DNA of 6,337 nucleotides, taken from IMG/VR virus record IMGVR_UViG_2693429524_000012. One strand, written 5' to 3'. Origin of the DNA: a virus. Taxonomy: Duplodnaviria; Heunggongvirae; Uroviricota; Caudoviricetes. This document shows, piece by piece, positions 1 to 6,337 of this stretch. Within the stretch, counting starts at the first letter, position 1, and each line of letters starts with the position of its first letter. Under the pieces are notes generated by a model, which was given only the letters and a program-made list of their open reading frames with translations, was not told the DNA's origin and did not search any database. A program made the translations under genes and the position numbers.

Positions 1-70
1 CCTGACTTTCCAGAACCATACGAATCGCCCGCTGACGGACTTCGGGGGAAAAACGAGTATTTTTAGTCAT
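1..70 (-). CDS. IS3-family transposase OrfA, N-terminal 23 codons (partial, runs off window)
   Basis: Complement of 1..70 translates MTKNTRFSPEVRQRAIRMVLESQ, with ATG at complement 68..70 and AAAGAGG 8 nt upstream. The N-terminus matches my recollection of IS629-group OrfA. Confidence 0.8.
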   Translation of the reverse strand, partial: MTKNTRFSPEVRQRAIRMVLESQ

Positions 71-124
71 CCTGTTTACCTCTTTCTCAGGGAGTTTAGT
101 CTCCAGGATTTCCGGGGCGGTTCA
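1..124 (-). mobile_element. IS3-family insertion sequence (IS629/IS1203/IS3411-like), left end; element continues beyond the window start
   Basis: Reverse complement of 71..124 reads TGAACCGCCCCGGAAATCCTGGAGACTAAACTCCCTGAGAAAGAGGTAAACAGG, a typical IS3-group terminal inverted repeat (5'-TG...), followed by a GAGG ribosome-binding site and the orfA start. Shares TGAACCGCCCCGG...TCCTGGAGA with the IS end at 6227. Family name is from memory of IS629 termini. Confidence 0.8.
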
Positions 125-139
125 CCGCGAGGAATCAGT

Positions 140-358
140 ATGCAGAAACGAGAACCCGTCATCATCGCGCCAGACTATACCGATGATGAACTTTATGAGT
201 GGATGCGCCAGAAAATTAATGCAGCGCAGGATCTGAAATGGGCCAATGAAGCCAGGGCTAAGCAGGCTGAAAATCTGTCCGCTCTGGAGCAGGATATCAC
301 TAATCTGGAAAAAGCAGCGACATTAAGCATTGCCAGAATGATTACATACCCGCGTTAA
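140..358 (+). CDS. ydfC: Small prophage early-left protein, 72 aa, YdfC-like by length and synteny
   Basis: ATG at 140 with GAGGA (129..133) 6 nt upstream; 72-aa ORF immediately upstream of the spacer and dicF, as in the Qin ydfABC-dicF-dicB-ydfD arrangement. The symbol rests on synteny and length (K-12 YdfC is 72 aa), not on a verified alignment. Confidence 0.6.
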   Translation: MQKREPVIIAPDYTDDELYEWMRQKINAAQDLKWANEARAKQAENLSALEQDITNLEKAATLSIARMITYPR

Positions 359-699
359 TAGCTAACCAACGAAGCTAAGGTTGGTAATTAAGGAGTTCTC
401 CACGGATGAGGTGGAGTGCGTGCGCCGGACACGGGTGAGCATCCGGCACTGACAGTTTACTGAAAGGATATTTCCCTGAAAAGTCAGACCATAACGCGAA
501 AGCGCACGGCGAGGTAGCTGGTTCATAGATAGCCTGTCGTTAAATTTTCGTCGACCGTGCGCTTCCGGTTGTGGCAATCCGCGAAATGGCGCGGCGGTAA
601 GTATGGCGGGGTTATTCCTTCCCCCGTTGAGGACACCGGGTTGTCAGGTTGACCATACGCTTAAGTGACAACCCCGCTGCAACGCCCTCTGTTATCAAT

Positions 700-752
700 T
701 TTCTGGTGACGTTTGGCGGTATCAGTTTTACTCCGTGACTGCTCTGCCGCCC
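700..752 (+). ncRNA. dicF: DicF small regulatory RNA (ftsZ translation inhibitor)
   Basis: Sequence TTTCTGGTGACGTTTGGCGGTATCAGTTTTACTCCGTGACTGCTCTGCCGCCC followed by TTTTT (753..757) matches the 53-nt DicF sequence as I recall it. GC-rich stem (GGCGG...CCGCC) plus U-run gives a terminator-like 3' end. It lies between the ydfC-like ORF and dicB, as in Qin. Confidence 0.85.
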
Positions 753-926
753 TTTTTAAAGTGAATTTTGTGATGTGGTGAATGCGGCTGAGCGCACGCG
801 GAACAGTTAAAACCAAAAACAGTGTTATGGGTGGATTCTCTGTATCCGGCGTTAATTGTTAACTGGTTAACGTCACCTGGAGGCACCAGGCACTGCATCA
901 CAAAATTCATTGTTGAGGACGCGATA

Positions 927-1115
927 ATGAAAACGTTATTACCAAACGTTAATACGTCTGAAGGTTGTTTTGAAATTGGTGTCACTATCAGTAACCCAGT
1001 ATTTACTGAAGATGCCATTAACAAGAGAAAACAAGAACGGGAGCTATTAAATAAAATATGCATTGTTTCAATGCTGGCTCGTTTACGTCTGATGCCAAAA
1101 GGATGTGCACAATGA
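927..1115 (+). CDS. dicB: Cell-division inhibitor DicB (62 aa)
   Basis: ATG at 927 with GAGGA (915..919) 7 nt upstream. The 62-aa product MKTLLPNVNTSEGCFEIGVTISNPVFTEDAINKRKQERELLNKICIVSMLARLRLMPKGCAQ matches DicB in length and, from memory, in sequence; it lies directly downstream of dicF. The 97-aa ORF-track version (822..1115) is an in-frame upstream extension without an RBS. Confidence 0.85.
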   Translation: MKTLLPNVNTSEGCFEIGVTISNPVFTEDAINKRKQERELLNKICIVSMLARLRLMPKGCAQ

Positions 1116-1303
1116 ATTCAGCATTTGTGCTTGTTCTGACAGTTTTTCTTGTTTCCGGAGAGCCAGTTGATATTGCAGTCAGTGTTCACAGGACAATGCA
1201 GTAGTGTATGACTGCAGCAACCGAACAGAAAATTCCCGGTAACTGTTACCCGGTCGATAAAGTTATTCACCAGGATAATATCGAAATCCCGGCAGGTCTT
1301 TAA
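1112..1303 (+). pseudogene. ydfD: ydfD-like lysis-protein gene interrupted by an in-frame amber codon (TAG at 1202..1204)
   Basis: ATG at 1112 overlaps the dicB stop (ATGA). The frame reads MNSAFVLVLTVFLVSGEPVDIAVSVHRTMQ, then TAG, then CMTAATEQKIPGNCYPVDKVIHQDNIEIPAGL and TAA at 1301..1303. A sense codon at the TAG would give 63 aa, the length of K-12 YdfD. The N-terminal 30 aa are hydrophobic and membrane-anchor-like. Confidence 0.6.
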
Positions 1304-1395
1304 AACAGTTCCGTAATAAATATCCGGTTTCATTCTTATATGCCAGCAATGGCAGGGATTTGTTCATCCTTAAATCTGTCATGAGGTTAAAACAA

Positions 1396-3867
1396 ATGAG
1401 TAAAGTCTTTATTTGCGCCGCTATTCCTGACGAACTGGCAACAAGGGAAGAAGGCGCTGTGGCTGTAGCCACAGCCATTGAAGCTGGCGACGAACGCCGT
1501 GCTCGAGCAAAATTTCACTGGCAATTCCTGGAACATTATCCGGCTGCTCAGGACTGCGCTTATAAATTTCTTGTCTGCGAGGATAAACCCGGTATACCCC
1601 GCCCTGCCCTCGATTCCTGGGATGCTGAATATATGCAGGAAAACCGCTGGGATGAGGCGTCTGCTTCCTTTGTCCCGGTTGAGACTGAATCAGATCCGAT
1701 GAACGTCACTTTTGACAAGCTGGCCCCTGAAGTACAGAACGCTGTCATGGTTAAGTTCGACACATGTGAAAACATCACCGTTGATATGGTGATTAGTGCG
1801 CAGGAACTGTTGCAGGAAGACATGGCAACATTCGACGGACATATCGTTGAAGCGTTGATGAAAATGCCAGAAGTTAACGCCATGTATCCGGAGCTTAAGC
1901 TGCATGCCATCAGGTGGGTTAAGCATAAATGTAAGCCTGGTGCCAAATGGCCCGAAATTCAGGCAGAGATGCGCATCTGGAAAAAACGTCGCGAAGGTGA
2001 ACGCAAGGAAACCGGAAAATACACGTCTGTTGTTGATCTCGCCCGCGCCAGAGCCAATCAACAGTACACTGAAAATTCAACAAGAAAAATCAGCCCGGTC
2101 ATTGCTGCCATTCATCGCGAATACAAGCAGACATGGAAAACACTGGATGACGAACTGGCCTACGCTCTCTGGCCTGGTGATGTGGATGCCGGAAACATTG
2201 ACGGCAGCATCCATCGCTGGGCAAAAAATGAAGTTATCGACAACGACCGCGAAGACTGGAAGCGTATCTCGGCATCAATGCGCAAACAGCCTGATGCCCT
2301 TCGCTACGACCGCCAGACTATTTTTGGCCTTGTCCGTGAACGTCCGATCGACATTCACAAAGACCCTGTGGCACTGAACAAATACATTACTGAATACCTG
2401 ACTACAAAGGGCGTGTTTGAAGATGAAGGAACAAATCAGAGCACAACTGATACTCTCTCGTCGCCAGTACCAGAAACTGATGCAGTGGAAACGGCAATTC
2501 CGGACAACGAAAAAACCGAATGCAAAGTGGAAATCGAACCATCTGTAGAGCGTGAGGGGCCGTTCTACTTCCTCTTCACCGACAAGGATGGCGAAAAATA
2601 CGGTCGCGCAAACAAACTTTCTGGTCTGAATAAGGCGCTGACTGCAGGGGCTACTGAAATCACGAAAGAAGAATATTTTGCCCGCAAAAACGGTACATAC
2701 TCAGGTTCACAACAAAATACTGGTGCATCTGACACGACCGCACAACCAGAGCCGGTAAAAGTTACCGCTGAAGAAGTAAACAAAATTATGCAGGCAGCCA
2801 ATATCAGCCAGCCTGACGCCGATAAGTTGCTTGCTGCCTCTCGCGGAGAATTTGTTGCAGGGATTAGCGACCCGAATGATCCGCAATGGGTGAAGGGGAT
2901 TGAAACCCGCGACTCTGCAAACCAGAACCAGCAAGAATCGGAACAGAACGACCAGAAAACGGAACAAAACAGCCCAAATGCGCAACAAAACGAGCCAGAA
3001 ACGAAACAGGTTGAACCAGTAGCGCAACAGGAGCCGGAAAAAGTCTGCACCGCCTGCGGTCAGACCGGCGGCGGCAACTGCCCTGATTGTGGCGCGGTGA
3101 TGGGCGACGCAACATACCAGGAAACATTCGATGAAGAGTATCAGGTTGAAGTTCAGGAAGATGATCCGGAGAAAATGGAAGGCGCTGAACATCCACACAA
3201 GGAGAACACTGGCGGCAATCAGCATCACGATAGCGATAATGAAACTGGCGAGACGGCAGATCACTCAATTAAGGTGAACGGTCATCACGAAATCACATCC
3301 ACCAGCAGGACGTGTGACCATCTAATGATCGACCTTGAAACCATGGGAAAAAATCCTGATGCCCCGATCATCTCAATAGGTGCAATATTTTTCGATCCGC
3401 AAACCGGAGATATGGGACCGGAATTTAGTAAGACTATCGATCTGGAAACTGCTGGCGGAGTCATTGATCGGGACACCATTAAATGGTGGCTTAAGCAATC
3501 ACGCGAAGCGCAATCTGCCATTATGACCGATGAAATCCCGTTAGATGATGCACTGTTACAATTGCGGGAATTTATCGACGAAAACTCCGGTGAATTTTTT
3601 GTTCAGGTCTGGGGAAATGGAGCCAACTTCGACAACACGATTTTGCGCCGTTCATACGAACGGCAGGGGATCCCCTGCCCGTGGCGTTACTACAACGATC
3701 GCGATGTACGCACAATCGTTGAGCTGGGGAAAGCCATAGACTTCGATGCCAGAACGGCTATTCCATTCGAAGGTGAGCGCCATAATGCACTTGATGACGC
3801 CCGTTACCAGGCAAAATACGTTTCAGTTATCTGGCAAAAACTGATCCCGAGTCAGGCTGATTTTTAA
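1396..3867 (+). CDS. Large prophage early-left protein (~823 aa): uncharacterised N-terminal region, Q/N/E-rich linker, CxxC-x7-CxxC zinc ribbon, C-terminal DEDDh (DnaQ/RNase T-like) 3'-5' exonuclease domain
   Basis: Long uninterrupted ORF; preferred start ATG 1396 (GAGG at 1384..1387, 8-nt spacer); alternatives are ATG 1381 and TTG 1360 (ORF-track start). DEDDh motifs are visible: Exo I MIDLETMG (3325..3348), Exo II WGNGANFDNT (3610..3639), Exo III HNALDDARYQ (3781..3810). Zinc ribbon CTACGQTGGGNCPDC at 3046..3090. It occupies the position of ydfE in Qin (truncated by IS2 in K-12) and of exo/recE in lambdoid phages. Confidence 0.85.
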   Translation: MSKVFICAAIPDELATREEGAVAVATAIEAGDERRARAKFHWQFLEHYPAAQDCAYKFLVCEDKPGIPRPALDSWDAEYMQENRWDEASASFVPVETESDPMNVTFDKLAPEVQNAVMVKFDTCENITVDMVISAQELLQEDMATFDGHIVEALMKMPEVNAMYPELKLHAIRWVKHKCKPGAKWPEIQAEMRIWKKRREGERKETGKYTSVVDLARARANQQYTENSTRKISPVIAAIHREYKQTWKTLDDELAYALWPGDVDAGNIDGSIHRWAKNEVIDNDREDWKRISASMRKQPDALRYDRQTIFGLVRERPIDIHKDPVALNKYITEYLTTKGVFEDEGTNQSTTDTLSSPVPETDAVETAIPDNEKTECKVEIEPSVEREGPFYFLFTDKDGEKYGRANKLSGLNKALTAGATEITKEEYFARKNGTYSGSQQNTGASDTTAQPEPVKVTAEEVNKIMQAANISQPDADKLLAASRGEFVAGISDPNDPQWVKGIETRDSANQNQQESEQNDQKTEQNSPNAQQNEPETKQVEPVAQQEPEKVCTACGQTGGGNCPDCGAVMGDATYQETFDEEYQVEVQEDDPEKMEGAEHPHKENTGGNQHHDSDNETGETADHSIKVNGHHEITSTSRTCDHLMIDLETMGKNPDAPIISIGAIFFDPQTGDMGPEFSKTIDLETAGGVIDRDTIKWWLKQSREAQSAIMTDEIPLDDALLQLREFIDENSGEFFVQVWGNGANFDNTILRRSYERQGIPCPWRYYNDRDVRTIVELGKAIDFDARTAIPFEGERHNALDDARYQAKYVSVIWQKLIPSQADF

Positions 3868-3882
3868 TGTTCAACCCTAATT

Positions 3883-3908
3883 GCCGCTAACCGTATATAG
3901 TTAGCGGC
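3883..3908 (+). promoter_or_regulatory. Perfect 9-bp-stem hairpin (GCCGCTAAC-cgtatata-GTTAGCGGC) between the exonuclease gene and xis
   Basis: Perfect inverted repeat at 3883..3891 and 3900..3908 with an 8-nt loop. There is no U-run after it, so it is unlikely to be a strong intrinsic terminator; it may be an RNA stability or processing element or a protein-binding site. Confidence 0.4.
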
Positions 3909-3925
3909 GGTTATGAGATATAGCT

Positions 3926-4129
3926 ATGAGCAACTTATTTTTAACCGAAGATGAATTGCTAATATTAACGGGCTGCAAATATGCAAGCCACCAGCGAAAA
4001 TGGTTAACGGAAAACGGGCTTCCGTTCTATACCAATCGTAGTGGCAAACCGATTGTCAGCCGGGATCTATTTACCTGCAATAAAACTTTACCACCACGCG
4101 AGGTAGAGCCGAATTTTGGTGCAATCTAA
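3926..4129 (+). CDS. xis: Excisionase-like small DNA-binding protein (DUF4224-type Xis), 67 aa
   Basis: 67-aa ORF directly upstream of int and translationally coupled to it (TAATG overlap at 4127..4131). The N-terminus MSNLFLTEDELLILTGCKYASHQRKWLTENGLPFY resembles the small helix-turn-helix proteins usually found upstream of lambdoid integrases. Function is inferred from position and general resemblance. Confidence 0.7.
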   Translation: MSNLFLTEDELLILTGCKYASHQRKWLTENGLPFYTNRSGKPIVSRDLFTCNKTLPPREVEPNFGAI

Positions 4130-5154
4130 TGGGAAGACGAAGGAAAAATCCTGAACACGAAAAACTACCTCCAAATGTATACCCAAATAAATATAGTTAT
4201 GTATGGAAACCAACATCCAGAGAATCTGTCACACTAACCGCCATCAAGGATGGTTTAGCTGCTTTATGGAAAAAGTATGAGGAAACTGTAAATAATCGCG
4301 ATCGTGCAATGACATTCGGTCGCTTGTGGGAAAAATTCCTCGCCAGCGCCTATTACAGTGACCTCAGTCCAAGAACACAAAAAGATTATCTGCAACATCA
4401 AAAAAAGTTGCTTGCCGTATTCGGTAAGGTGCCGGCAGATTCCATAAAACCAGAACACATCCGTCGATACATGGACAAGAGAGGGGAACAGAGTAAAACG
4501 CAAGCCAACCATGAAAAAAGCAGTATGTCCCGCGTTTACAGTTGGGGGTATGAGCGAGGGTACGTGAAGGCTAACCCATGTGCAGGTGTAAGTAAATTCA
4601 AGGCCAAAAACCGCGAACGATATGTAACCGACAAAGAATACCAGGCAGTATTAAGCGTTGCACCTCTTCCTGTTTTTATCGCAATGGAAATTGCCTATCT
4701 GTGTGCAGCGAGGGTTTCCGATGTGTTATCGCTGAAATGGGAGCAGATTGGAAACGACGGAATCTTTATCCAGCAAGGGAAAACAGGAAAAAAACAGATA
4801 AAAGCATGGAGTCCACGATTACAGGCGGCGATCGAAAAAGCAAAACAGTTACCAACATCCGCCTATGTAATCAGTAATCAATACGGCAACCGATATATGT
4901 ACAAAGGCTTTAACGAAATGTGGGTAGAAGCAAGAAATCGCGCAGGCAAAATTTCAGGTATTTTAACCGACTTCACCTTTCATGATCTGAAGGCGAAAGG
5001 AATTTCAGACTATGAAGGAAGCAGTCGGGATAAGCAACTTTTCTCTGGTCACAAAACCGAGGGGCAAGTGCTAATCTATGACAGGAAGGTTAAAGTTTCA
5101 CCGACACTTGATGTCCCGTTACCTGAAAATATTCCAAGAAAATATTCCAAGTAA
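4129..5154 (+). CDS. int: Phage integrase, tyrosine recombinase of the lambda Int family (341 aa); Lys found where catalytic Arg II is expected
   Basis: By-eye alignment with lambda Int catalytic regions: AARVSDVLSLKWEQI (Arg I), QQGKTGKK (Lys), FHDLKAKG (His present, Lys at 4990..4992 where HxLR Arg is expected), GHKTEG (His), LIYDRK (Tyr). The gene ends 49 bp from the 3' end of serU. Confidence 0.9.
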   Translation: MGRRRKNPEHEKLPPNVYPNKYSYVWKPTSRESVTLTAIKDGLAALWKKYEETVNNRDRAMTFGRLWEKFLASAYYSDLSPRTQKDYLQHQKKLLAVFGKVPADSIKPEHIRRYMDKRGEQSKTQANHEKSSMSRVYSWGYERGYVKANPCAGVSKFKAKNRERYVTDKEYQAVLSVAPLPVFIAMEIAYLCAARVSDVLSLKWEQIGNDGIFIQQGKTGKKQIKAWSPRLQAAIEKAKQLPTSAYVISNQYGNRYMYKGFNEMWVEARNRAGKISGILTDFTFHDLKAKGISDYEGSSRDKQLFSGHKTEGQVLIYDRKVKVSPTLDVPLPENIPRKYSK

Positions 5155-5161
5155 TTCCAAG
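5126..5161 (+). repeat. Tandem direct repeats AAAATATTCCAAG x2 plus a third TAATTCCAAG copy, spanning the int stop codon
   Basis: Perfect 13-bp units at 5126..5138 and 5139..5151, with a third ATTCCAAG at 5154..5161. Position at the int 3' end next to the tRNA/att junction is typical of integrase arm-type binding sites. Confidence 0.6.
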
Positions 5162-5203
5162 TGTGATTTTTGTCACTGACTTAATGATGTATAAGTGATT
5201 GAA

Positions 5204-5293
5204 TTTTGGCGGAGAGAGGGGGATTTGAACCCCCGGTGGAGTTGCCCCCACTCCGGTTTTCGAGACCGGTCCGTTCAGCCGCTCCGGCATCTC
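5204..5293 (-). tRNA. serU: tRNA-Ser (anticodon CGA), 90 nt with long variable arm and encoded CCA
   Basis: Reverse complement is GGAGAGATGCCGGAGCGGCTGAACGGACCGGTCTCGAAAACCGGAGTGGGGGCAACTCCACCGGGGGTTCAAATCCCCCTCTCTCCGCCA. Seven-bp acceptor stem GGAGAGA/TCTCTCC, anticodon loop CUCGAAA (anticodon CGA), class II variable arm, T-loop GGTTCAAATCC. The symbol follows from the anticodon and the adjacent mtfA. Confidence 0.95.
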
Positions 5294-5389
5294 TCCGTTC
5301 AGATGGTTGCCATGATGCCAGGAAATTTGGCATTTTAACAGTCCCTGTCCGTGCAATTTTGTTCAAGTGACGAGTTTGCGAGCAAAACG

Positions 5390-6187
5390 ATGATTAAGTG
5401 GCCCTGGAAAGTACAAGAATCAGCACATCAAACTGCCCTTCCCTGGCAGGAAGCACTATCGATCCCCCTTTTAACGTGTCTGACGGAACAGGAACAAAGC
5501 AAATTAGTCACTCTTGCCGAACGTTTTTTACAGCAAAAGCGGCTTGTTCCTTTACAGGGCTTTGAACTGGATTCATTAAGAAGCTGCCGGATAGCACTTC
5601 TATTTTGCCTACCCGTTCTGGAGTTAGGACTGGAATGGCTGGATGGTTTTCATGAAGTCTTAATTTATCCTGCGCCATTTGTGGTCGATGATGAATGGGA
5701 AGACGATATCGGTCTGGTGCATAACCAACGTATTGTTCAGTCAGGTCAGAGCTGGCAGCAAGGGCCTATCGTTTTGAACTGGTTGGATATACAAGATTCT
5801 TTTGATGCTTCTGGTTTTAACCTGATTATTCATGAAGTCGCTCATAAGCTGGACACCCGTAACGGCGATCGCGCCAGCGGAGTTCCCTTTATTCCGTTGC
5901 GTGAGGTTGCTGGCTGGGAACACGATCTTCATGCTGCAATGAACAACATTCAGGAAGAAATCGAATTGGTTGGCGAGAATGCGGCGAGCATTGATGCTTA
6001 TGCTGCCAGTGATCCTGCTGAATGTTTTGCCGTACTTTCTGAATATTTCTTTAGCGCCCCAGAACTTTTTGCTCCTCGTTTCCCTTCATTGTGGCAACGT
6101 TTCTGCCAATTTTATCAACAAGATCCTTTGCAGAGACTGCATCGCACTAATGATACAGACTCGTTTTCGGCGACGAATGTTCATTAA
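5390..6187 (+). CDS. mtfA: MtfA (Mlc titration factor A; zinc-dependent peptidase), 265 aa
   Basis: Product starts [28 protein letters not shown], contains the HEVAH zinc-binding motif, and is 265 aa, matching E. coli MtfA (YeeI). The ORF-track start at GTG 5351 is an in-frame upstream extension; ATG 5390 is the likely start. Confidence 0.95.
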
Positions 6188-6226
6188 TTAACAACTTTGC
6201 AGATTAATTAACCAATTGAAATGGCT

Positions 6227-6337
6227 TGAACCGCCCCGGGTTTCCTGGAGAGTGTTTTATCTGTGAACTCAGGCTGCCAGATCATCGTTTCCGATGGAAG
6301 CATAATAAGCTTTTTCTGCTTCTGCCGGAGGAGTATG
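6227..6337 (-). mobile_element. IS3-family insertion sequence (IS629-like), right end; element continues beyond the window end
   Basis: From 6227 the sequence reads TGAACCGCCCCGGGTTTCCTGGAGAGTGTTTTATCTGTGAACTC, an IS3-group terminal repeat related to the one at 71..124. The complementary strand encodes a transposase C-terminus. Same orientation as the copy at the window start. Confidence 0.8.
6269..6337 (-). CDS. IS3-family transposase OrfB, C-terminal fragment (partial; frame chosen by motif)
   Basis: Complement of 6272..6337 translates HTPPAEAEKAYYASIGNDDLAA followed by TGA (complement 6269..6271). The TP-x-E-x-E-K-x-YY pattern resembles the C-terminal tail of DDE transposases. A second frame is also open here, so the frame is uncertain. 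Confidence 0.45.
   Translation of the reverse strand, partial: HTPPAEAEKAYYASIGNDDLAA

Follow-up and report, generated by a model that had tools for sequence, protein, structure and literature searches.

The window, which is the whole 6337-bp stretch of DNA analysed here, is a complete short-read contig that ends in two IS1203 junctions, and these junctions most probably record two independent insertions into an ordinary locus. It constitutes the entire contig CYFD01000113.1 of the E. coli draft assembly GCA_001284405.1; an identical contig is recorded for two samples, and the source proteins are labelled Escherichia coli. In the 6102-bp segment between the junctions, serU and mtfA follow an ordinary prophage arm, the integrase-proximal one of a DicB-type lambdoid element at serU. 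Rearrangement at either site, or at both, is a realistic alternative to simple insertion. The finding is an ordinary one of small biological importance, since IS1203/IS629 insertions in E. coli prophages and intergenic spacers are already well documented and the locus is standard. The features of the window are as follows.

1–124, minus: IS1203 stub, the IRL-proximal 124 nt; the copy runs leftwards off the contig
125–127: CCG, 3 bp that a simple insertion would have duplicated on the outer side of the left IS (empty site in L001)
140–358, plus: ydfC, 72 aa, dicB operon gene of the prophage (open reading frame; annotated ydfC in collinear complete genomes)
701–752, plus: DicF small RNA (Rfam RF00039, 76.7 bits against a gathering score of 48, E = 3.6e-16, full-length)
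927–1115, plus: dicB, cell-division inhibitor, 62 aa (Pfam PF05358; annotated dicB in relatives)
1112–1303, plus: ydfD, probable pseudogene, in-frame TAG at 1202–1204 (read from the sequence)
1396–3867, plus: phage exonuclease, 823 aa, with YdfE_N, YdfE_C and Rv2179c-like 3'-5' exonuclease domains (gene call, Pfam)
3926–4129, plus: DUF4224 protein, 67 aa, in the excisionase position (PF13986)
4129–5154, plus: tyrosine integrase, 341 aa, intact (PF00589)
5207–5296, minus: serU, tRNA-Ser (anticodon CGA), the prophage attachment site (ARAGORN; Rfam tRNA, 57 bits)
5390–6187, plus: mtfA, 265 aa, Peptidase_M90, chromosomal core gene (gene call, Pfam)
6224–6226: GCT, 3 bp that a simple insertion would have duplicated on the outer side of the right IS (empty site in L001)
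6227–6337, minus: IS1203 stub, the IRR-proximal 111 nt; the copy runs rightwards off the contig

Identity of the two window ends

The two ends of the window are genuine same-direction ends of IS1203, an IS629 isoform of the IS3 family. By alignment, positions 1–124 (minus strand) are the last 124 nt of a 1310-bp IS1203 copy (124 of 124 positions), while positions 6227–6337 (minus strand) are the first 111 nt of that same copy (111 of 111), in a single orientation throughout; all 235 visible IS nucleotides are thus identical to the reference. The reference copy (L024, 415–1724) corresponds to NZ_AP018488.1 80757–82066 of E. coli O157:H7 PV15-279, and is annotated there, as in strain 503025 (L025), as "IS3-like element IS1203 family transposase". 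The sequence-only reading had described two same-orientation IS629-like ends around some 6.1 kb, and this description holds, at 100% identity to IS1203 and with both ends in minus orientation.

Several features of the stubs mark them as true element termini. The motif TGAACCGCCCCGG has two sites only in the window, at 112–124 (minus strand) and 6227–6239 (plus strand), against a chance expectation of 0.10 matches, and two matches were reached in none of 200 shuffles. The terminal inverted repeats, 25 nt long at 100–124 and 6227–6251, are imperfect (88% complementary) and have 6102 nt in between. The termini read 5'-TG and CA-3' (TGAACC.../...GGTTCA), matching IRL and IRR in the reference copy. 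Read on the minus strand, the left stub holds the start of orfA (ATG at window position 70, MTKNTRFSPEVRQRAIRMVLESQ, with 23 codons visible), and the right stub holds the end of orfB, 22 codons and the stop spanning 6337 down to 6269, with ...HTPPAEAEKAYYASIGNDDLAA as the final residues; both are as in the reference. The IS1203/IS629 reference copies share with the window their terminal inverted repeats, orfA start and orfB end. Unlike the full reference element, however, the window shows two stubs only, from two different copies, and the programmed -1 orfA/orfB frameshift site and DDE (rve) domain carried by reference IS1203 copies both lie beyond its contig ends.

The IS of the window corresponds to subtype I (IS1203-like), which is 4–5% divergent from the Shigella and O26 subtypes (PMC3271280). 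Other IS629-type copies in the loci examined have 94–96% identity to the IS1203 reference copy. The idea that the two ends represent different IS629 subtypes was rejected, as one IS1203 copy matches both at 100%; it had come from a copy in L023 whose right end matches at 100% and whose left end matches at just 95%.

Because the window is an entire draft contig, the IS stubs are contig-terminal repeat fragments, and the contig breaks were probably caused by repeat collapse at a multi-copy 1.3-kb IS during short-read assembly. That the two stubs share an orientation is a one-in-two outcome and carries no statistical weight alone. Their lengths are unequal (124 versus 111 nt), which a single k-mer size does not explain. 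There is a lesson on method here: where a window finishes in an IS stub on either side, the stubs may do no more than show where a draft contig stopped, and they give no grounds for inferring deletion, trimming or mobilisation.

The elements had also been read as a hint of Shigella or of heavy genome decay, and this part of the sequence-only reading did not stand. A Shigella origin is ruled out by the Escherichia coli labels on the source proteins. Furthermore, the IS629-type end sequence occurs in 3589 of the 5426 complete E. coli genomes, at a median of 3 places and at up to 50, and because it is so distributed, an IS1203 end is not diagnostic of a decaying lineage. The sole decay visible in the window is the nonsense codon of ydfD, which is common to IS-free relatives; in the CD45 locus, which has 99.2% identity, ydfD carries the annotation "lysis protein YdfD, internal stop". 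Literature on the accession yielded nothing usable.

The prophage arm at serU and its IS-free relatives

The content between the IS1203 ends is as first described, namely a prophage arm, serU and mtfA. The integrase gene ends 52 nt from serU, a gene in the excisionase position lies alongside it, and the site is empty elsewhere. In the prophage-free genomes L008–L013, a gene with a Ni_hydr_CYTB domain (PF01292), which we take to be yodB, is found directly upstream of mtfA (~750 bp) with no prophage genes between, a comparison drawn from the protein gene table, which does not list tRNAs. From its position, the DUF4224 protein is a putative excisionase.

The same arrangement is common in E. coli. 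Positions 123–6227 are present uninterrupted, and IS-free at both sites, in 802 of the 5426 complete genomes, with identity up to 99.2%. In the DicB-type (Qin-like) serU prophages, such as Escherichia phage Tritos and those of CD45 and many other E. coli, the order ydfC-DicF-dicB-ydfD-exonuclease-DUF4224-int adjoins tRNA-Ser as in the window, at 96–99% identity. Compared with prophages of the Tritos and CD45 type, the window differs in that the IS, with the end of the contig, severs the arm from ydfB, ydfA and dicA.

By exact-protein look-up, the exonuclease, named "exonuclease from phage origin [Escherichia coli]", was found only in this contig, in two samples, while the integrase spans 7251 index blocks and mtfA 35,800; the look-ups of the last two returned other lineages only, without these IS junctions. 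An Rfam scan of the window detected DicF and the tRNA and nothing else, and a repeat scan of the window gave no further repeats of note.

Insertion sites and IS629-type elements in related loci

Comparison with the empty sites in L001 places each junction precisely. The left site falls within a 29-nt spacer, 14 nt past the point where ydfB stops in relatives and 15 nt ahead of the ydfC ATG, and reads ...taagcgaaacagca/ccgcgaggaatcag when empty (the slash marks the site). The right site, ccaattgaaatgact/tatgaaatttagtgTTGACA... when empty, lies 39 nt past the mtfA stop and 61 nt before the asnT of relatives; a promoter scan found a promoter-like site, TTGACA-17-TAATAT, 14 nt downstream of it. 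By BLAST of each junction against the 5426 complete E. coli genomes, no single-piece match was obtained at either site, and exact 30–32-mers of both junctions had 0 matches in the GTDB species representatives and JGI metagenomes.

Two separate copy-out-paste-in events would account for this configuration. One would have placed an IS1203 copy between ydfB and ydfC of the DicB-type serU prophage, and the other a second copy in the chromosome backbone, between mtfA and asnT, both in minus orientation. An assembler unable to cross the 1.3-kb repeat would then have stopped inside the IS at both sides. Beyond the contig ends there would be full-length IS1203 copies, each a simple insertion, with the duplication CCG on the left and GCT on the right. 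A simple left insertion predicts the outer junction ...GCGAAACAGCACCG/TGAACCGCCCCGGGTTTCC, with CCG duplicated and ydfB as the outer neighbour; likewise, a simple right insertion predicts ...GGGGCGGTTCA/GCTTATGAAATTTAGTG, with GCT duplicated and asnT as the outer neighbour. The left insertion would be expected to separate DicF and dicB from the dicA-controlled promoter.

Related loci illustrate how such elements behave in this part of the prophage. Perfect 3-bp duplications flank 8 of the 10 full IS629-type copies examined in relatives; in the literature, IS629 duplications are reported as 3–4 bp (PMC3271280). The IS629-type copy of E. coli HCM-22C-2 (NZ_AP038228.1, L026) is a simple insertion with the duplication AAC, 28 bp from the left site of the window and in the same orientation. 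It lies in the first codons of ydfC, with the prophage intact on both sides, and represents an independent event, being inside ydfC, whereas the left site of the window is upstream of that gene. L002 has a simple insertion in dicB of this prophage arm (duplication CGA), and L027 has a copy just upstream of ydfC in a related DicB-type prophage (CTA). In E. coli E110019 (NZ_CP035751.1, L028), the same prophage arm adjoins serU-mtfA-asnT, and part of it is bracketed by two same-orientation 1310-bp IS629-type copies. Unlike those of the window, the E110019 copies are in plus orientation, and one falls between ydfC and dicB, the other at the 3' end of the exonuclease gene. Each has its own 3-bp duplication (GGG and ATA), with no deletion. 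Together, these sequences show that the ydfB-ydfC-dicB stretch of serU prophages is struck repeatedly and independently by IS629-type elements, for the most part through simple insertion with 3-bp duplications.

Rearrangement, mobility and assembly as alternative origins

The principal rival to two simple insertions is that IS1203 sits at a rearrangement junction, formed by adjacent deletion or by recombination between IS copies, with loss or displacement of the asnT side or of the part of the prophage beyond ydfC on the left. Recombination between direct repeats of 1.3 kb is possible in principle. The sequence-only reading had suggested IS-mediated trimming of this kind and called the prophage a remnant, for which the window gives no support, as the contig simply stops inside the IS. 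A precedent is found in L023 (AP026739.2), where two IS629-type copies without duplications lie beside a truncated exonuclease gene of the same prophage, of which the last 281 codons are left, joined to late or lysis genes; in L014, an IS adjoins a gene-poor remnant of this prophage arm. Moreover, matching duplications were reported at just 21 of 47 IS629 sites in O157:H7 (PMC3271280). Conversely, all five of the IS629-type insertions in or just upstream of the arm (L002, L026, L027 and L028) are simple and have 3-bp duplications, and the inner flanks in the window are perfectly collinear with the ancestral locus. The window, which covers inner flanks only, gives no positive sign of rearrangement in this isolate, and a rearranged origin is considered distinctly less probable than two simple insertions, if one to be taken seriously.

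Four observations were counted against two simple insertions: the window has the inner flank only of each IS1203 copy, the L023 copies are without duplications, the O157:H7 survey found matching duplications at a minority of sites (PMC3271280), and the stub lengths are unequal.

It is also conceivable, though very improbable, that in this E. coli lineage a 7.4-kb unit delimited by the two direct IS1203 copies is in flux, excised as a circle, tandemly amplified or deleted in part of the population. Such a unit would consist of one IS plus ydfC-DicF-dicB-exo-int-serU-mtfA, and as an IS-bounded cassette it would carry a tRNA gene and a core regulator gene along with a phage integration module.

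Even more doubtful is the general proposal that the segment and its IS are mobile or amplified, whether as a composite transposon bounded by direct IS copies, a tandem array or an excised circle of 7.4 kb made up of one IS and the 6102 bp. All these forms would yield the same contig, with IRR at the right end and IRL at the left, and the pattern of segment, IRR...IRL, segment formally fits a loop through a single IS node in the assembly graph. The citrate transposon Tn3411 is flanked by direct copies of IS3411, an IS629 isoform, and this was counted in favour of a mobile unit; a search on Tn3411 and IS3411 found no usable source in the literature. As for a composite transposon, the window presents two junctions in the correct relative orientation, through their inner ends only, yet instead of occurring in multiple genomic contexts the passenger DNA retains its ancestral chromosomal order, with serU and mtfA in native order adjoining the prophage attachment site as in the 802 IS-free genomes. 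The IS junctions of the window were found nowhere else in the collections searched (5426 E. coli genomes, GTDB representatives and JGI metagenomes). Nor did any of 72,556 plasmids have the segment at high identity together with IS ends: the only plasmid record with at least 80% coverage of the segment is 90% identical, in a 439-kb replicon. Mobilisation of the segment to plasmids was accordingly rejected, and the earlier suggestion that it could be mobilised as a composite unit is unsupported.

Finally, an assembly artefact, in which one stub is a chimeric join and the segment is not truly linked to both IS junctions, is scarcely credible. In its favour, short-read assemblies are least reliable at the ends of contigs, and the stubs differ in length. 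Against it, the identical contig is recorded for two samples, and each junction coincides exactly with a canonical IS terminus (TG...CA), as true insertions would, unlike random chimeras.

Identity of the IS ends and gene content of the window

The IS pieces at the two ends of the window were compared with fetched full-length annotated copies of the element. Positions 1-124 are identical (124/124) to the last 124 nt of a 1310-bp element, and positions 6227-6337 are identical (111/111) to its first 111 nt, in the same orientation. E. coli O157:H7 PV15-279 and strain 503025 have identical copies of this element, which PGAP names 'IS3-like element IS1203 family transposase'. The minus strand of the left stub includes the start of orfA (ATG at 70, 23 codons), and that of the right stub the last 22 codons and stop of orfB. 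Furthermore, the terminal motif TGAACCGCCCCGG is present exactly twice in the window, at 112-124 (minus) and 6227-6239 (plus), with a chance expectation of 0.10, and 25-nt imperfect inverted repeats at 100-124 and 6227-6251 face each other with 6102 nt between them. Since both stubs match one element, the boundaries at 124 and 6227, the family and the shared orientation proposed by the sequence-only reading are borne out. Its description 'IS629-like' also holds, IS1203 being the narrower name: IS1203 is subtype I of IS629, 4-5% divergent from the subtypes of Shigella type and O26 type (PMC3271280). Other IS629-type copies in the compared loci are only 94-96% identical to the 1310-bp element. 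One copy matched the right end at 100% and the left end at only 95%, which at first hinted at stubs of two different subtypes; this idea was dropped, as a single 1310-bp copy fits both ends at 100%.

When the exonuclease protein was searched for by exact match, the only place found was contig CYFD01000113.1 in assembly GCA_001284405.1, whose 6337 bp are the window and which is on record from two samples. Protein records CTZ62378.1 and CTZ64363.1 carry the name 'exonuclease from phage origin [Escherichia coli]'. The window thus corresponds to one entire draft contig from an E. coli isolate, and the suggested link to Shigella falls away, the source proteins being labelled Escherichia coli. Sequences matching the IS end are found in 3589 of 5426 complete E. 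coli genomes (median 3 places per genome, maximum 50). Contigs end in short IS stubs because a short-read assembler cannot cross such a multi-copy repeat, and we infer that the window starts and stops in IS sequence for this reason. The map below was built from the ORF list, a tRNA scan, an Rfam scan and the gene calls of the source record.

Features of the window
1-124, minus: IS end
140-358, plus: ydfC
701-752, plus: DicF sRNA (Rfam RF00039, 76.7 bits, full-length)
927-1115, plus: dicB
1112-1303, plus: ydfD, with an in-frame TAG at 1202-1204
1396-3867, plus: exonuclease, 823 aa (YdfE_N, YdfE_C and Rv2179c-like 3'-5' exonuclease domains)
3926-4129, plus: DUF4224 protein
4129-5154, plus: tyrosine integrase
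5207-5296, minus: serU, tRNA-Ser(CGA)
5390-6187, plus: mtfA
6227-6337, minus: IS end

Antisense to the ydfC-DicF spacer lies a 54-aa ORF (362-526, minus), which is a gene call in the source record and in many relatives and has no Pfam hit. The internal stop of ydfD is annotated likewise in CD45, whose IS-free locus is 99.2% identical to the window; the decay of ydfD is therefore older than the IS insertions and has nothing to do with them. In the exonuclease, a long linker rich in Q, N and E and a CxxC...CxxC motif (~3046-3095) precede the C-terminal 3'-5' exonuclease domain; the exact sequence of this protein is on only 2 contigs of the whole collection, although the 90% cluster to which it belongs counts 23,183 members. 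The window encodes an intact integrase (341 aa) with the same sequence as a very widespread protein; several of the nearest complete genomes (CD45, OkiPb01684, E110019) have the integrase gene annotated with a frameshift.

The uninterrupted locus and the two insertion points

The stretch 123-6227 is uninterrupted in 802 of the 5426 complete genomes, at up to 99.2% identity, and both insertion sites are free of IS there. In these IS-free genomes ydfC is preceded on the left by ydfB, ydfA, dicA/dicC and the remainder of the lambdoid prophage, and mtfA is followed on the right by asnT and then by either yeeJ or the yersiniabactin island. In prophage-free genomes, the gene immediately upstream of mtfA, at a distance of ~750 bp, encodes a Ni_hydr_CYTB domain (PF01292) and is taken here to be yodB; the protein gene table used for these genomes has no entry for serU.

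In CD45, the empty left site reads ...taagcgaaacagca up to the insertion point and ccgcgaggaatcag beyond it, and the empty right site ccaattgaaatgact followed by tatgaaatttagtg. The left IS thus sits in the ydfB-ydfC spacer, with 14 nt between it and the stop of ydfB and 15 nt between it and the ATG of ydfC. The right IS follows the stop codon of mtfA by 39 nt, and asnT comes 61 nt further on. Two simple insertions would be expected to have duplicated CCG (125-127) on the left and GCT (6224-6226) on the right. A simple left insertion would give the junction ...TAAGCGAAACAGCACCG then TGAACCGCCCCGGGTTTCCTGGAG, with CCG duplicated and the prophage intact on the far side; a simple right insertion would give ...CTCCAGGATTTCCGGGGCGGTTCA then GCTTATGAAATTTAGTGTTGACAG, with GCT duplicated and asnT intact on the far side.

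IS629-type insertions in relatives

Locus variation among relatives, which the sequence-only reading had proposed looking for, does exist: the prophage arm is a recurrent IS629-type target.

IS629-type copies at compared loci, with flanking triplets
L026: 1315-2624, within the opening codons of ydfC, oriented like the window's left IS and 28 bp from its insertion point; AAC / AAC
L027: 1315-2624, upstream of ydfC by a few hundred bp, an IS1203 of identical sequence; CTA / CTA
L002: 5803-7112, in dicB; CGA / CGA
L028 (E110019): two direct copies, 3490-4799 and 8010-9319, around dicB-ydfD-exonuclease, nothing deleted; GGG / GGG and ATA / ATA
L023 (AP026739.2): two copies, with the neighbouring exonuclease gene cut to its last 281 codons; flanks not matching

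The clustered insertions in L026, L027, L002 and L028 all have 3-bp duplications. They are independent events in unrelated E. coli, all in the ydfB-ydfC-dicB-exonuclease arm of serU prophages, which may thus form a regional hotspot for insertion. In L023 the IS copies go with a rearrangement: the two, identical to each other (7201-8510 and 19073-20382), are flanked by AAC/GAC and TAC/CTT and lie beside the truncated exonuclease gene and in the yeeJ region, which suggests recombination between IS copies or adjacent deletions in that genome. Both outcomes therefore exist in nature, with simple insertions predominating (8 of 10 copies examined). In O157:H7, matching duplications were found at only 21 of 47 IS629 sites (PMC3271280).

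Probable origin of the junctions and possible effects on neighbouring genes

The best-supported reading, and a probable one, is that the window is a draft contig broken at repeats, with IS1203 junctions in direct orientation at its two edges and an otherwise standard locus between them. Copy-out-paste-in transposition is established for the IS3 family, and two such independent events would most probably account for two junctions in direct orientation. That both copies are full-length, each with its own duplication, is a joint inference with slightly better than even chances. The sequence-only reading, whose observation of the IS ends is confirmed, is supported only in part in its interpretation. 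The main rival, its 'trimmed prophage', in which at least one of the two copies sits at a junction made by deletion or recombination, is unlikely, and nothing in the window speaks for it. A composite transposon, circle or tandem is formally compatible with the pattern of contig ends, yet very improbable given the native gene order and the lack of a second context. Chimeric assembly is the least credible, since each junction coincides precisely with a canonical IS terminus and the same contig occurs in two samples.

No complete E. coli genome (n=5426) contained either junction in one piece, and exact junction 30-32-mers gave 0 matches in GTDB species representatives and JGI metagenomes. The 6.1-kb segment was IS-bounded on no plasmid searched, and the genomes, plasmids and metagenomes searched held no sign of its movement. 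Both insertions are private to the window's lineage. The finding is already known in kind: IS1203/IS629 is a known element, the prophage a Qin-like, DicB-type lambdoid prophage at serU, and the backbone the conserved serU-mtfA-asnT. For E. coli, deletions driven by IS629 and recombination of IS copies in direct orientation are likewise textbook or published matter (PMC3271280 and references in it). The only new facts, two insertion sites unrepresented among complete genomes, are trivial.

Because the left IS lies between ydfB and ydfC, the ydfC-DicF-dicB stretch is cut off from the dicA-controlled promoter, which is upstream of ydfA in relatives, and its cell-division inhibitors are probably silenced. 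Should asnT still follow the right IS, its upstream promoter context would be replaced by the IS end; a TTGACA-17-TAATAT promoter-like site, which precedes asnT in relatives, lies 14 nt downstream of the right insertion point (12119-12147 in the CD45 locus, L001).
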